A stretch of DNA of 64,000 nucleotides. Origin: Escherichia phage FL31. Below the pieces are notes generated by a model. That model ran no database searches. It was not told the origin of the DNA and saw only the letters and a program-made list of their open reading frames with translations. Both the position numbers and the translations under genes were made by a program. Below, piece after piece: positions 3,271 to 62,316 of the stretch. Numbering within the stretch: the first letter of the stretch is position 1; each line of letters begins with the position of its first letter. The DNA lies in the sequence record PP400782. The stretch is one strand, 5' to 3'.

Positions 3271-3300
3271 ATTGTACCACAATCCTTGTGGTATGTAAAC
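3271..3300 (-). promoter_or_regulatory. early promoter-like element (-35 GTTTAC, -10 TACAAT)
   Basis: Minus strand GTTTACataccacaaggattgtgGTACAAT upstream of the RNA ligase start. Confidence 0.45.
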
Positions 3301-30078: not shown

Positions 30079-30328
30079 TTTGTGTTCCTCATGTTTCAGT
30101 AAGACTACTATACCATAATCCTACCGTGATGTAAACAATTAAATTACATTAAAATATGTTAAAGCCAACCATGTTCCAGTGAACGAACATGCAATGTAAA
30201 AAACCGTATCACAAATTGTTCTTAGTACAATAAGAAGTGCATTTTTCATAAGTACCTCAACACAATTGAAAATATTATACAAATCATTGGGATACTAAGC
30301 AACCATATTCCTATCCACATTTTAGAGC

Positions 30329-39206: not shown

Positions 39207-39234
39207 AATATTCTCCTCTTGTTTTGATAGGTCT

Positions 39235-39263
39235 ATAGTATCATAGACTATAGTTGTTGTACA
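39235..39263 (-). promoter_or_regulatory. early promoter-like element (-35 TGTACA, -10 TACTAT) with AGACCTATCAA box
   Basis: Minus strand TGTACAacaactatagtctatgaTACTATagacctatcaaaac. Confidence 0.4.
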
Positions 39264-39788
39264 TCATTTTAGCAAAATAAAATCAACTTGTTCTGCCAAT
39301 GAACGTCTAAACATTAATTGACAACTTCCGAGGATGAAATCAGGTGCTTCATAGACCGCGATGTAGTATCCTTTAGCTTTCAAGAGTTCAACATCTACCT
39401 GGTCATCAAACCATGCATAAACCGCGTCAACGCTTTCAAATCCAAAATAGAACCCTTGAGCCCAATCTTCACTCAATTCAAATGTGTACTCAATTCTATG
39501 GTATCTTAAGATATTTTGTTCAAGAAGTTTGTCTTCATTTACTGTAGGACGATTAGGGACATTATAGTTGTCGCCGTGATGGTAGAAGTTACCTGAGAGT
39601 ATTCCATGCTTATCAAGGAACTCCCATGTTTCTTCAGAGTTGTCAGTGCCGGACCAACCATAAGGTGAGCGAGGTTCTTTATTCCAAGAGGTTTCCCAAA
39701 TTCTGACGGCTTTACCGTCTTCGATAGCAATTCCTGGTAATGATTCACGTTGAGTACAAAAACTACGTTCTACGCGGTAAACTAACAT
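39264..39788 (-). CDS. hypothetical protein (174 aa)
   Basis: ORF with GAGGAG SD. Confidence 0.45.
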   Translation of the reverse strand: MLVYRVERSFCTQRESLPGIAIEDGKAVRIWETSWNKEPRSPYGWSGTDNSEETWEFLDKHGILSGNFYHHGDNYNVPNRPTVNEDKLLEQNILRYHRIEYTFELSEDWAQGFYFGFESVDAVYAWFDDQVDVELLKAKGYYIAVYEAPDFILGSCQLMFRRSLAEQVDFILLK

Positions 39789-39814
39789 ATTATTCTCCTC
39801 TGGTTGATATGGTT

Positions 39815-39843
39815 ATAATATCAAAACCAGAGGAGAAGTAAAC
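39815..39843 (-). promoter_or_regulatory. early promoter-like element (-35 GTTTAC, -10 TATTAT) nested in a 12-bp inverted repeat that includes the downstream SD
   Basis: Minus strand GTTTACttctcctctggttttgaTATTATaaccatatcaaccagaggagaataatATG. Confidence 0.45.
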
Positions 39844-39847
39844 AACT

Positions 39848-40267
39848 TTATGCGAAAGCAGCTGGGCTATATTTTTTAATTTGGAATTCAGGAACTACCA
39901 TGAACTGACCAGCGAAAACGATGTTATAAAGCTTAACACCATCTTCTACCCAACGGTCGCTAATAAATCCGGCGATTTGCTTAGTTTTCCATGGCGTTCC
40001 ATCAGTTGCCGCAGCAATAGTGAATTCATGGTCTTTTTCAACAGAAACTGATCTGCATAGTCCCCATTTGAACGCTTTTTCTTCTGGCTCAATGAACTGG
40101 CTTGAGACGTAGCCAATATTACCATTAGCATCACGAACTTTAACTTGGTTACGACCAAAAACCGGATCACTCACAGAAAGAACTTCAACCAACTTCCCGG
40201 CAACTTTAGAGCGAGAAGCAACAGATACATATACGTAATCACCTGTAGAGAGATTTACAATATTCAT
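39848..40267 (-). CDS. hypothetical protein, member C of a triplicated paralog family
   Basis: Shares VSVASRSKVAGKLVEV and RWVEDGVKLYNIVFAGQF with the two adjacent ORFs. Confidence 0.5.
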   Translation of the reverse strand: MNIVNLSTGDYVYVSVASRSKVAGKLVEVLSVSDPVFGRNQVKVRDANGNIGYVSSQFIEPEEKAFKWGLCRSVSVEKDHEFTIAAATDGTPWKTKQIAGFISDRWVEDGVKLYNIVFAGQFMVVPEFQIKKYSPAAFA

Positions 40268-40276
40268 AATAATTCC

Positions 40277-40732
40277 TTAAGCTTTACGAGGAGACACGTA
40301 GCGAGTGATTTCAGATTCTTTAACAACTCGGAAGTCACCTAAGAATACGATATTGTATAACTTTTCACCATCTTCAACCCATTGGTCACTGATGAAGCCG
40401 CACATAATATCAGTTTTGTTTGGATAACCATATTCGTCGATGAAATCAAATTCTTTATCAGTCCGGAATTCAACGCCTTTGCAAAGGGCCCATTTGAACT
40501 GTACATTAGGTTCAGTAGAAGCAAAATGAGCGCTCACATGAGTTTCCAAGAATTTAGGACTTACGTAAGCGTACTGAGTTTCAGTTTTTCCAGAACTAGG
40601 AATGATTCGAACTTTAACTTCTTTAACACGACCAGTACCATTAGTACGAAGTCCTACCACTTCAACTAGACGACCTGCAGCTTTAGAACGAGATGCAGAC
40701 GATACACGCTTAATTTCACCAATAGTAATCAT
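40277..40732 (-). CDS. hypothetical protein, member B of a triplicated paralog family (start at MITIG with GAGAGAGA SD)
   Basis: VSSASRSKAAGRLVEV and DQWVEDGEKLYNIVFLGDF. Confidence 0.5.
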   Translation of the reverse strand: MITIGEIKRVSSASRSKAAGRLVEVVGLRTNGTGRVKEVKVRIIPSSGKTETQYAYVSPKFLETHVSAHFASTEPNVQFKWALCKGVEFRTDKEFDFIDEYGYPNKTDIMCGFISDQWVEDGEKLYNIVFLGDFRVVKESEITRYVSPRKA

Positions 40733-40794
40733 AATTTCTCTCTCTTTGTTTAAGTTGAATTCATTATACTCCATCCGTCCTTGGATGTACAACA

Positions 40795-41289
40795 TTAATT
40801 AAGGATATTAACCACAGCACTACGTGGAACTACACTAAAATCACCTGCATGAACTACGTTCAGAAGTTCAACACCGTCTTCAATCCACTGATCAGTTACC
40901 CATCCATTTACTGGACCAGCGAATGGGCGTCGAATTGAAACATATTTACACAACAAATCAGTAGGCTCAATAGGCTTAATCAGAGTACCGTACATACAAG
41001 CGATATCCATATCAATACAGATATCTTTAACGGGTTCTACTTCTTCAATCAACAGTTCAAAGTCGGTGCTTGGAATGGCGGTAGTAGAAATTGTACCATA
41101 TGAATTTTTAATTTCTAAGAATAACCAAGGGCCTTCGGCTTGTTTGATGAAGTTAACAATAGTGAAACTATTACCTTGAGTGGCGCCTAAAATTTCACAA
41201 AACTTTTCATAAGCTCGCACTGAAGCACCGTACCAGTTAATTTGTTTTTCGTCTTTCAGGATGTAAGTAGCCGTAGTATTGATATTCAT
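40795..41289 (-). CDS. hypothetical protein, member A of a triplicated paralog family
   Basis: C-terminal DQWIEDGVELLNVVHAGDFSVVP shared with the two downstream ORFs. Confidence 0.5.
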   Translation of the reverse strand: MNINTTATYILKDEKQINWYGASVRAYEKFCEILGATQGNSFTIVNFIKQAEGPWLFLEIKNSYGTISTTAIPSTDFELLIEEVEPVKDICIDMDIACMYGTLIKPIEPTDLLCKYVSIRRPFAGPVNGWVTDQWIEDGVELLNVVHAGDFSVVPRSAVVNILN

Positions 41290-41355
41290 AATGTTTTTCC
41301 TGTTTGGTTAGGATAGAAAGATTATACTCCAACCGTCCTTGGTTGTAAACTGGTT

Positions 41356-45231: not shown

Positions 45232-45813
45232 CTAAAAATTCAACATTTTCAAATGAATGATTTTGTATAATCTAGATAAAGGGTCATATTCTAAGTCTTC
45301 AATTTCCACAATCTCAAATCTAGAGATACCTGAGACCATGTACTCTTGTTCAGATTCAATCATATCTAGGACGTCAACACGCTTTTCTTCCATAACATGC
45401 TTAGGGTTCTTTCCGGCGAGTACAATGTTAATCATGTTTTGGTAGTAATCAAAAATGAATGGAGCATTCCTGAGACTAAGAATAGTGTACGTCTGATATT
45501 CCCATCTCCCAGAGAATTGACGAGCTGTACTGAAATCAGTTGTGAACGATGTTACTCGTCCAGGAGACCAATGGCATCCAACAGAAAGAAGAGAAAGACG
45601 TTCTACTTCTTCTGGAGTTACACCACGGTAGAGTTCTACTGGTACTGTAGAAGTCATATGCTTACGAACAAGATGGTCTAATTCATAGTGGAAATCCGGG
45701 TCTTCCTTAGAATCAGTGCAAGCCCAGAGAATGTTTTGTTCTTGGCGGGTGAATTTGCTATCAATAAGATTTGTTAGGTATTCACGTTCTTGAAGTTCAG
45801 ATTGACATGTCAT
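45232..45813 (-). CDS. modB: ADP-ribosyltransferase, ModA/ModB family (modB position)
   Basis: Motifs ELYRG, SFTTDFSTA, EQEYMVSG; 193 aa. Confidence 0.6.
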   Translation of the reverse strand: MTCQSELQEREYLTNLIDSKFTRQEQNILWACTDSKEDPDFHYELDHLVRKHMTSTVPVELYRGVTPEEVERLSLLSVGCHWSPGRVTSFTTDFSTARQFSGRWEYQTYTILSLRNAPFIFDYYQNMINIVLAGKNPKHVMEEKRVDVLDMIESEQEYMVSGISRFEIVEIEDLEYDPLSRLYKIIHLKMLNF

Positions 45814-45840
45814 GATAGACCTCCATTTAAAGATAAGCCT

Positions 45841-45869
45841 ATCATAACATGAGAGGAGGGAATGTAAAC
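45841..45869 (-). promoter_or_regulatory. early promoter-like element (-35 GTTTAC, -10 TATGAT)
   Basis: Minus strand GTTTACattccctcctctcatgtTATGAT. Confidence 0.4.
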
Positions 45870-52330: not shown

Positions 52331-52540
52331 TTATTGAAAACCTGCTTCGAAAACTTTCTCGTCATTAATAAATGCTTTAACTAATGCTTTGTTCACTTCA
52401 GCAAGTTGTACCGTAACCCACTCGATTTCTTCGCGATCACCTGATAACATGATATCTTTAGTGAACATCTCACCGCTTTTAAACCAACCGATAAAAGTAA
52501 CTTTAGTTAATTTGCTCATATTTCCTCGCAAAATGCCCAT
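52331..52540 (-). CDS. hypothetical protein (69 aa); overlaps the end of the upstream ORF
   Basis: ORF only. Confidence 0.25.
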   Translation of the reverse strand: MGILRGNMSKLTKVTFIGWFKSGEMFTKDIMLSGDREEIEWVTVQLAEVNKALVKAFINDEKVFEAGFQ

Positions 52541-52833
52541 TCAGCGTGATAAACTGTAGCGCCTTTAGTATCATTCATTTGAACTACATCTACCGGAGAA
52601 ATTACTCGATAGAGACGTGGTTCACCTCCATAAGAGCGTGCTGCTCGTCCTGCATAAATCTTTGCTAAACCGATATCTTCAGTAAAGAATACACGATCCA
52701 AGTTTTTCTTACGTCCAGTTTCAGACAGAACTCCTGTTTCTTCAGGAGGACAAAGCATGTTTTCGATGTTAGCTGAACTACTTGAACCGTGATAAAAAAT
52801 CTTAAATTCTGCTTTACAATCGATGGTTTTCAT
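52516..52833 (-). CDS. small Arr-like (rifampin ADP-ribosyltransferase-like) domain protein
   Basis: FYHGSSS...RVFFTEDIGLAKIYAGRA...RLYRVISPVDV aligns by eye with recalled Arr motifs (FYHGT...IYFSALMEPAVWGAELA...YIYIVEP); from memory, not searched. Confidence 0.4.
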   Translation of the reverse strand: MKTIDCKAEFKIFYHGSSSSANIENMLCPPEETGVLSETGRKKNLDRVFFTEDIGLAKIYAGRAARSYGGEPRLYRVISPVDVVQMNDTKGATVYHAEWAFCEEI

Positions 52834-52859
52834 TTTGTTCTCCAGTAGTTGATAGGTCT

Positions 52860-52888
52860 ATAATAACACAACTACTGGAGAAGTAAAC
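52860..52888 (-). promoter_or_regulatory. early promoter-like element (-35 GTTTAC, -10 TATTAT) nested in an inverted repeat that includes the downstream SD
   Basis: Minus strand GTTTACttctccagtagttgtgtTATTATagacctatcaactactggagaacaaaATG. Confidence 0.45.
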
Positions 52889-53263
52889 TTAAAAACGTAA
52901 TTTAGATACATCTGCGTTGATTTCGGTTTGGTTTGCGTCGTATGCAATTAAACGAACCGCTTTAGATGGGTCATTCAATGCATAGAAATGATGGAACATT
53001 GCTCGAACGATATCACCATTTACGAGTTCTACCTGGATAGGAGAACCTTTTTCGAGTTGGAAATGTTCATAAGCTTTGATGGTTCGCAGATAATCAAGTT
53101 TTTGATTTCCGGCTCCAACAATTTGTACGATACGTTTGCCCATGTTTTCCATACGAGATACAATAGTTTTAGGAGCAAGAATAACGTAGGTTGCCAGCGG
53201 AGAAACTACTTCAACAGTTGTGTTTTCGGTGATTGCAGTAAAAATTGCTTGAGACATATTCAT
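52889..53263 (-). CDS. hypothetical protein (124 aa)
   Basis: ORF with AAGAGGAAAA SD. Confidence 0.45.
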   Translation of the reverse strand: MNMSQAIFTAITENTTVEVVSPLATYVILAPKTIVSRMENMGKRIVQIVGAGNQKLDYLRTIKAYEHFQLEKGSPIQVELVNGDIVRAMFHHFYALNDPSKAVRLIAYDANQTEINADVSKLRF

Positions 53264-53292: not shown

Positions 53293-53322
53293 ATCATATC
53301 ATGCCTAGAGGAAGATGTAAAC
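53293..53322 (-). promoter_or_regulatory. early promoter-like element (-35 GTTTAC, -10 TATGAT)
   Basis: Minus strand GTTTACatcttcctctaggcatgaTATGAT. Confidence 0.4.
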
Positions 53323-53345
53323 CCCGAAAGGAGACCGAAGTCTCC
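53320..53345 (-). terminator. UUCG hairpin/terminator after gene 41
   Basis: Minus strand ggagac-UUCG-gucucc followed by UUUCGGGGUUUAC (moderate U tract). Confidence 0.45.
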
Positions 53346-53351
53346 TTTTTA

Positions 53352-62182: not shown

Positions 62183-62316
62183 CTAGTTAAAGCATTCATA
62201 CTTTGCTTGTAGTCCAATCATAATCCATCCAATTACAAGTGTTGGAATCATTACCGGAGCCGTTAAGCTCCAGTAGATAGTCATGACAAGCATCAATAGT
62301 AAAAGTCCTATTGTTA
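62183..62316 (-). CDS. small hydrophobic peptide (about 47 aa), not in supplied track
   Basis: Manual translation MKAITIGLLLLMLVMTIYWSLTAPVMIPTLVIGWIMIGLQAKYECFN; GAGG SD. Confidence 0.25.

Follow-up and report, generated by a model that had tools for sequence, protein, structure and literature searches.

Two early promoters of a T-even phage carry anti-Shine-Dalgarno segments predicted to close the next gene's ribosome-binding site on read-through RNA

Introduction

Bacteriophage T4 is a textbook model of temporal gene control, in which immediate-early confinement is only partly explained by promoter shut-off and RegB. At the other end of the program, the T4 genes e, soc, 49 and I-TevI have their ribosome-binding sites sequestered in read-through RNA, and a late promoter is located within the sequestering hairpin. 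The hairpin of gene e lowers lysozyme synthesis 100-fold. RegB/S1 targets consist of GGA(G/U) followed by an A-rich heptamer; they must be single-stranded, and RNA structure protects them. The leaders of T4 motB.2, regB and nrdC.8 are RegB substrates, and the motB.2 leader (GGAU) is cut by RegB in vivo.

Stem-loops that overlap early promoters have been described as PeSL cassettes, and neither PeSL paper (Arbiol et al. 2010; Comeau et al. 2014) mentions Shine-Dalgarno (SD) masking or translation. SD masking by early promoters is likewise not described in reviews of T4 transcription and post-transcriptional control, in the RB69 promoter survey (Nolan et al. 2006) or in the literature returned by keyword searches; an earlier remark is possible in Miller et al. 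2003 (PMC150520) or in older papers such as Liebig & Rüger 1989.

The DNA analyzed here is a 64,000-nucleotide stretch of Escherichia phage FL31 (the window), which is 97–99% identical to the RB69-like T-even phages FP43, SA79RD and JK45. A sequence-only reading had proposed that two early promoters of the window lie inside inverted repeats that couple translation to promoter choice, as in some T4 genes. The T4 precedent is apt in that e, soc, 49 and I-TevI contain a promoter within the hairpin, but those promoters are late and their temporal logic differs.

Results

Each of the two elements contains a predicted early promoter, a leader and a start codon, all on the minus strand. Site 1 (39786–39843) ends with the ATG of a motB.2 homolog, and site 2 (52831–52888) ends with the ATG of a 105-residue open reading frame (ORF). 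Both promoters match the T4 early type by consensus, GTTTAC-N17-TGnTATTAT, including the extended −10 TGn; GTTTAC is the −35 consensus of T4 early promoters (Nolan et al. 2006). Both early promoters are intergenic and sigma-70-like; each has AT-rich sequence upstream and leads into the next gene's SD and ATG.

Site 1 reads from 39843 to 39786 on the minus strand as GTTTAC TTCTCCTCTGGTT ttga TATTAT aaccatatc AACCAGAGGAGAA taat ATG, with TTCTCCTCTGGTTttga as the full spacer. The −35 hexamer GTTTAC occupies positions 39838–39843, and the extended −10 element TGa TATTAT occupies positions 39815–39823 (hexamer 39820–39815). The spacer accommodates the anti-SD 5′ arm TTCTCCTCTGGTT (39825–39837), which is present only in transcripts started upstream. 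The 3′ arm AACCAGAGGAGAA (39793–39805) includes the SD GGAG (39798–39795) and is followed by the start codon (39788–39786). An inner 6-bp stem forms between residues 39818–39823 and 39805–39810.

Site 2 reads from 52888 to 52831 on the minus strand as GTTTAC TTCTCCAGTAGTTG tgt TATTAT agacctat CAACTACTGGAGAA caaa ATG, with TTCTCCAGTAGTTGtgt as the full spacer. The −35 hexamer GTTTAC (52883–52888) is followed by the anti-SD 5′ arm TTCTCCAGTAGTTG in the spacer (52869–52882) and by the −10 hexamer TATTAT (52860–52865), which is preceded by TGt. The 3′ arm CAACTACTGGAGAA (52838–52851) includes the SD GGAG (52843–52840), and the start codon is located at 52833–52831. The spacer of each promoter holds a perfect complement of its own SD leader, spanning 13 nt at site 1 and 14 nt at site 2. 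Both repeats had been quoted correctly beforehand; the coordinates then given (39815–39843 and 52860–52888) cover the −35 to −10 part, but the 3′ arms lie just outside them and the strand was unstated. The main stems at both sites are perfectly Watson-Crick, so that the window by itself cannot tell an RNA-level from a DNA-level cause.

The motB.2 homolog (39264–39788, minus strand) encodes 174 residues, belongs to phrog_1106 and lies 3′ of three tandem motB-like genes. The 105-residue ORF (52516–52833, minus strand) belongs to phrog_2110, overlaps the start of the downstream dmd gene and lies 3′ of gene 41 and a 124-residue ORF. Both PHROGs are families of unknown function, and no Pfam domain was found in either protein. 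The genes around both sites are all on the minus strand. A plus-strand reading was discarded because TTGATA and TATAAT are just 4 nt apart there and the genes lie on the other strand. The three tandem motB-like paralogues (139, 172 and 164 residues; 39848–41289, minus strand) have a common C-terminal motif, ...SDxWVEDGxKLYNIVF.GxF.VV., and the 139-residue copy is matched by the Pfam motB family. A search of the whole window against Rfam 15 gave no match at the gathering score.

The repeats are not random. In the 64-kb window, these two loci alone hold perfect inverted repeats that reach 12 bp or more and enclose loops of 3–40 nt, and dinucleotide shuffling gives expectations of 0.22 for 12-mers and 0.04 for 13-mers. 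The duplex energies of the two spacers with their own leaders (−22.5 and −23.5 kcal/mol) lie beyond those of all 272 promoter/leader cross-pairs of the window (mean −5.6, s.d. 3.2, minimum −17.6). The promoter pattern GTTTAC-N16-18-TANNNT occurs 21 times in the window against an expected 3.45, an approximately six-fold enrichment that is nearly all on the coding strand (19 minus).

The predicted folding differs sharply between the two kinds of transcript. Own-promoter RNA was modelled from 7 nt after the −10 hexamer, the inferred start point, and read-through RNA was modelled with 60–150 nt of upstream sequence. The 5′ arm precedes the −10 hexamer, and RNA started at the promoter would therefore lack this arm whatever the exact start site. 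The hairpin has a minimum free energy (MFE) of −23.9 kcal/mol (z −7.3) at site 1 and −21.7 kcal/mol (z −5.5) at site 2, and none of 200 shuffled sequences was as good. The predicted unpaired probability of the SD decreases from 0.44 in own-promoter RNA to 0.02–0.04 in read-through RNA at site 1 and from 0.57 to 0.015–0.019 at site 2. The predicted energy required to open the region from −15 to +5 increases from 2.7 to 20.6 kcal/mol at site 1 and from 3.1 to 18.5 kcal/mol at site 2. For the other 14 promoters of the window, the mean change in opening energy is 2.5 kcal/mol, and 13 of them change by at most 4.9 kcal/mol. The models agree with the earlier proposals that own-promoter transcripts lack the upstream arm and leave the SD free and that read-through transcripts fold a hairpin over the SD, for which RNA folding had been named as the check. 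The reading that translation is coupled to promoter choice is supported by the models in every part that can be checked in silico.

The exception among the 14 control promoters is a third masking hairpin with a different geometry (45806–45869, minus strand). Its promoter has GTTTAC at 45869–45864 and the −10 hexamer TATGAT at 45846–45841. The 5′ arm (45851–45836) is composed of the −10 hexamer and its flanks, and the 3′ arm (45821–45806) extends over the last part of the SD GGAGG and over the ATG (45813–45811) of an ORF that starts with MTCQSELQ. The hairpin contains three G·U pairs at a predicted energy of −22.9 kcal/mol. Opening the translation initiation region would cost 5.6 kcal/mol in own-promoter RNA versus 18.0 kcal/mol in read-through RNA. 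An analogous pairing, ATGATAGC/GCTATCAT, is observed at the T4 modB promoter. The promoter at 53322 was considered as a further masking site (TCTTCCTCTAGG/CCAAGAGGAA) and rejected, as its MFE is −10.1 kcal/mol (z −1.4) and its SD stays approximately 50% open in read-through RNA. Other minus-strand promoters have shorter stem-loops that follow the published PeSL types and leave the SD uninvolved, one set at 30136, 30648, 51576 and 712 and another at 3300, 2118 and 41350. Examples are a hairpin flanking the −10 hexamer (GGUAGGAUUAUGG/…UAGUCUUACUG; −15.8 kcal/mol, z −3.5) and a hairpin wholly within the spacer (CCACAAGGATTGTGG).

Read-through RNA is expected at both sites because each has an early promoter upstream and no terminator-like site was found between them in the scans. 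The nearest upstream early promoters, which are the expected read-through sources, are located at 41321–41350 for site 1 and at 53293–53322 for site 2, both on the minus strand. Mot-box middle-promoter candidates (TGCTTNA-N11-13-TANNNT) number 11 in the window against 3.4 expected, with eight on the coding strand (minus-strand positions 62194, 60889, 46956, 37945, 16461, 13300, 9595 and 1569). Those that lie further upstream of the elements on this strand could supply middle-mode RNA that reads through the hairpins. Directly 3′ of gene 41, at approximately 53323–53350 on the minus strand, a UUCG tetraloop caps a GGAGACUUCGGUCUCC hairpin, which is followed by UUUCGGGG and abuts the −35 hexamer of promoter 53322, forming a terminator-plus-promoter junction. 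Relatives of the T4 group have a similar GGAGCUUCGGCUCC followed by U6 upstream of the homolog of the 105-residue ORF.

Read-through RNA could also be under translational coupling, whereby a ribosome finishing the upstream ORF would melt the hairpin and the gene would be translated on read-through RNA only together with its upstream neighbor. The upstream stop codons are indeed close, with TAA at 39850–39848, 10 nt before the site-1 5′ arm, and TAA at 52891–52889, 6 nt before the main stem of site 2. A terminating ribosome reaches approximately 5–9 nt past the stop codon, judging from its footprint and helicase geometry. Such a reach would open none of the site-1 stem (0 bp) and no more than 3 bp at site 2, and the pairing of CUCC with GGAG is unreached. 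Moreover, the distance between stop codon and stem is not conserved, the stop in phage JS98 being located 17 nt before the −35 hexamer. Translational coupling is thus extremely improbable.

A locus search with MotB.2 returned three near-identical loci only, and orthologues were therefore drawn from GenBank phages. At the orthologous motB.2 promoter, an SD-masking stem is kept in four genera with changing paired sequence. The window and its close relatives use the 13-bp arms TTCTCCTCTGGTT/AACCAGAGGAGAA. The arms are TTCTCCTCTAG/CTAGAGGAGAA (...CTAG/CTAG...) in ESCO47 and TTCTCCTCATG/CATGAGGAGAA (...CATG/CATG...) in the Dhakavirus members JS98, NC-G and KIT01. In T4, T6, e11/2, JK1, Killian and FL44, the arms TCCTCGGT(T)AG/CTACTGAGGA, i.e. 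UCCUCGGU(U)AG/CUACUGAGGA, are combined with an inner stem, for an energy of −23.7 kcal/mol with three G·U pairs, and one G·U pair of this T4-group stem is replaced by A-U in e11/2. Klebsiella phage vB_KM5a1-KLB31 (Kanagawavirus; positions 80–153 of locus L096) pairs GACCTCCT with AGGAGGTC, i.e. GACCUCCU/AGGAGGUC, and its 5′ arm is found outside the spacer, in the segment that separates the −10 hexamer from the expected start point. The KLB31 stem would have the predicted effect through an independent arrangement. Different sequences and geometry in the four genera would lead to the same outcome, namely an SD that is paired in read-through RNA only.

Two features of the relatives count against promoter-dependent masking. 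The site-1 stem contains single uncompensated mismatches in two close relatives (C·A in ST0 and U·C in ATK47). The long stem of site 2 is limited to the Mosigvirus lineage, as T4-group orthologues keep just TTCTCC/GGAGAA, and one relative (L013) has the site-2 leader with the 5′ arm absent. The Mosigvirus site-2 spacer differs from that of the T4 group at the positions through which it pairs with a leader that contains a TAC insertion. Among the relatives at site 2, different upstream halves are joined to the same leader. Phage ST2 (OM982647.1, L055), compared with window positions 39207–39843, is devoid of motB.2, and its site-1 promoter is fused to the cef leader. The junction in ST2, which leaves a 9-bp TTCTCCTCT/AGAGGAGAA stem, joins the site-1 promoter to that of cef within the −10 region. 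From its sequence, the loss of motB.2 in ST2 looks like a deletion by recombination between neighboring early promoters, as proposed for PeSL.

The orthologues also bear on whether the stem-loop acts as a terminator or attenuator, the role suggested for PeSL cassettes, and thereby shields the downstream gene at the level of transcription. In a transcriptional fusion, one RB49 PeSL stem-loop lowered lacZ expression as much as rrnB T1 did (Arbiol et al. 2010), and site 1 is annotated in SA79RD (OL960576.1 7373–7417; L001 2489–2533) as a rho-independent terminator from WebGeSTer/TransTermHP. Neither stem is followed by a U-tract (site 1, UAAUAUGUUAG; site 2, CAAAAUGAAAAC); the 3′ flanks are A-rich, and scans of both strands found no terminator-like site at either element. 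The loops of 7–19 nt are long for a terminator. In four genera and in front of unrelated genes, the 3′ arm is always the SD, even where the 5′ arm has moved, and a terminator needs no such placement. Transcriptional insulation is accordingly unlikely to account for the elements. The SA79RD label is probably a mis-annotation, given the missing U-tract and the overlap with a consensus early promoter and an SD, and such labels may recur in other T4-like genomes.

The pairing covaries beyond the motB.2 orthologues. IMG/VR was scanned for GTTTACTTCTCC…GGAGAA…ATG, a pattern that fixes the first six pairs and demands no pairing beyond the two hexamers. The scan yielded 26 distinct sequences, and 11 of the 26 have 11–16 contiguous perfect base pairs; these 11 precede seven or more unrelated genes, among them homologs of regB and denV. 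Stem positions 7–12 are paired in 62% of cases, a level reached in 0 of 2000 permutations, compared with 37% for permuted partners and 32–49% for slid registers. In a 17-sequence alignment, 35 cells are changed on both sides versus 16 ± 3, and the covariation score is 0.271 versus 0.084 (0 of 500) and versus 0.05–0.11 in slid registers. The sequences suggest that pairing is maintained by compensatory change, both across orthologues and across unrelated genes.

In the T4 genome (NC_000866), an SD and an ATG lie close to 31 promoters of the GTTTAC type. Seven of the 31 have a spacer/leader duplex of −17.8 kcal/mol or lower (range −18 to −24; the 1% quantile of cross-pairs is −15.8). These are the promoters of regB (62797), alc (136336), ndd.4 (166807), alt.-3 (123093), motB.2 (8218), nrdC.8 (53943) and denV (65413). 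Two or three G·U pairs are present in six of the seven, and the sense RNA is 5–10 kcal/mol more stable than the antisense RNA. This asymmetry argues for selection at the level of the mRNA-sense transcript rather than of antisense RNA or DNA cruciforms, and the sole mRNA-sense transcript on which it could act is the read-through RNA. The T4 members include regB, which is autoregulated by cutting its own SD, and the Mosigvirus regB homolog (L068, L074 and L086) has a 14-bp perfect version.

The T4 promoters are informative with respect to a DNA-level or neutral origin, in which quasi-palindrome template switching, recombination sites (PeSL shuffling) or cruciforms would produce the repeats without any RNA function. 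The perfect Watson-Crick main stems of the window would fit a recent template-switch correction, and the loss of motB.2 in ST2 by a crossover between the site-1 and cef promoters would fit PeSL-mediated recombination. The G·U pairs and the sense-strand advantage of the T4 members are unexpected for DNA hairpins, and the 3′ arm always lies over the SD or AUG at seven or more unrelated genes with different arm sequences. Recombination, in addition, requires similarity between promoters and not self-complementarity. An origin without RNA function is therefore regarded as very unlikely.

Both masked leaders resemble RegB/S1 sites. Compared with the consensus GGAGRAYARAA, site 1 (GGAGAAUAAUA, 39798–39788) matches at 10 of 11 positions and site 2 (GGAGAACAAAA, 52843–52833) at 11 of 11. 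Because the masked segment is a consensus RegB/S1 site that must be single-stranded, the hairpin probably also spares read-through RNA from RegB at the junction and leaves the short transcript cleavable, by analogy with known RegB targets. RNA processing or stability could even be the primary role, with the hairpin hiding a RegB/S1 site or protecting a 3′ or 5′ end after cleavage, thereby preserving the polycistronic RNA, and translational masking arising as a by-effect. The consensus matches, the single-strand requirement of RegB and the RegB-sensitive T4 leaders of motB.2, regB and nrdC.8 are in line with such a role. Several T4 members, however, are poor RegB sites (GGAC in alc, GGAA in alt.-3 and poor cleavage in denV), the scanned elements show no correlation between RegB-consensus score and stem length, and the third element of the window (45869) masks the AUG instead of GGAG. 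A primary role in RNA processing is improbable, and the poor T4 sites together with the lack of a relationship between consensus score and stem length indicate that the RegB link is probably secondary.

Discussion

Promoter-dependent translation is the probable, though by no means certain, explanation of the two elements: in the models, ribosomes would have access to the cistron on its own immediate-early transcript but not on longer RNAs. This reading is based on the arrangement common to all members, in which the 3′ arm is the next gene's ribosome-binding site and the 5′ arm is untranscribable by the gene's own promoter. Each element would be a sigma-70-type T-even early promoter with a built-in anti-Shine-Dalgarno, the 13–14 nt after the −35 hexamer being complementary to the leader and SD of the next gene. 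RNA polymerase at the internal promoter would start approximately 7 nt past the −10 hexamer and generate a transcript that lacks the 5′ arm and presents a strong, open ribosome-binding site (GGAG, a 4-nt spacer and AUG). RNA entering from an upstream early or middle promoter would carry both arms and fold into a hairpin of approximately −22 to −24 kcal/mol, in which the SD is buried and the cistron is silent on the polycistronic RNA. We infer that the gene would be translated essentially only from its own immediate-early transcript, with synthesis limited to the burst before early-promoter shut-off. The upstream early promoters fire simultaneously with the internal one, so that a benefit of silencing the read-through copies is hypothetical, which counts against this reading.

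A tentative extension is that approximately one-fifth of T-even early promoters (7 of 31 in T4 and 3 of about 17 in the window) may contain, within the spacer, the −10 hexamer or the pre-start region, a segment complementary to the SD or AUG; the cistron behind such a promoter would be translatable and RegB-cleavable only on its own immediate-early transcript and untranslated on all longer RNAs. If true, this arrangement would represent an unrecognized genome-wide layer of early-gene control and give PeSL stem-loops a translational function. It would also help to explain how RegB inactivates short early messages and spares longer early, middle and late RNAs with the same GGAG.

The anti-SD promoter is a compact device of approximately 58 nt that would tie translation to the promoter that made the RNA. 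If it is confirmed, T4-like genomes would need a new reading of some of their PeSL stem-loops and of certain automatically assigned "terminator" labels. The device would mark genes whose dose or timing is most tightly guarded (regB, alc, denV, motB.2, modB-type genes and several ORFs of unknown function) and could serve in synthetic biology as a part that insulates a cistron from read-through.

Several known systems resemble the window elements. Intrinsic terminators are likewise stable stem-loops between two genes; the window elements differ from them in the missing U-tract, the long loop and a 3′ arm that is the ribosome-binding site. In Aeromonas phage Aeh1 mobE and T4 segB, an RNA hairpin lowers translation initiation, as predicted here, but that hairpin is not made from the spacer of the gene's own early promoter. 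The RegB/S1 sites of T4 early leaders similarly consist of GGAG and an A-rich heptamer within the translation initiation region. They are defined as single-stranded, whereas the window site is predicted to be single-stranded in the promoter-proximal transcript only.

PeSL cassettes (Arbiol et al. 2010; Comeau et al. 2014) share with the window elements an intergenic early promoter, an AT-rich upstream region, a stem-loop that overlaps the promoter, and a 3′ end with an SD and ATG. Both are also associated with indels, which in the window elements correspond to the ST2 deletion and the swaps of upstream halves at site 2. The window elements have the structural features of PeSL; their stem-loop spans the −10 box, and the nearest of the five published positions is "overlapping the −10". 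The published stems are short (AGNA-loop-TCNT in T4/PST and Gn-loop-Cn in RB49), in contrast to the 13–14 bp observed here. They were interpreted as terminators or attenuators and as recombination sites, and their description includes no 3′ arm that reaches into the SD, whereas the 3′ arm of the window elements is the SD itself.

The closest likeness is to T4 e, soc, 49 and I-TevI, in which the SD, the AUG or both are paired in RNA started upstream and the gene's own transcripts lack the 5′ strand, as is predicted here. The hairpin of gene e is weaker than the window hairpins and yet has a 100-fold effect, and translational masking at the window sites is proposed by this analogy. The T4 promoters in question are late (gp55, TATAAATA), and expression is delayed to the late period. 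The window promoters read GTTTAC-N17-TGnTATTAT instead, and the elements are therefore a variant and not a strict member of the T4 class, with a sigma-70 early promoter, a 5′ strand in the −35/−10 spacer and predicted early confinement. A promoter inside a hairpin that sequesters the ribosome-binding site is known from the T4 late genes, and the models support an early-promoter version as the new element. Its temporal logic would mirror that of the late genes, with confinement to the early burst in place of postponement.
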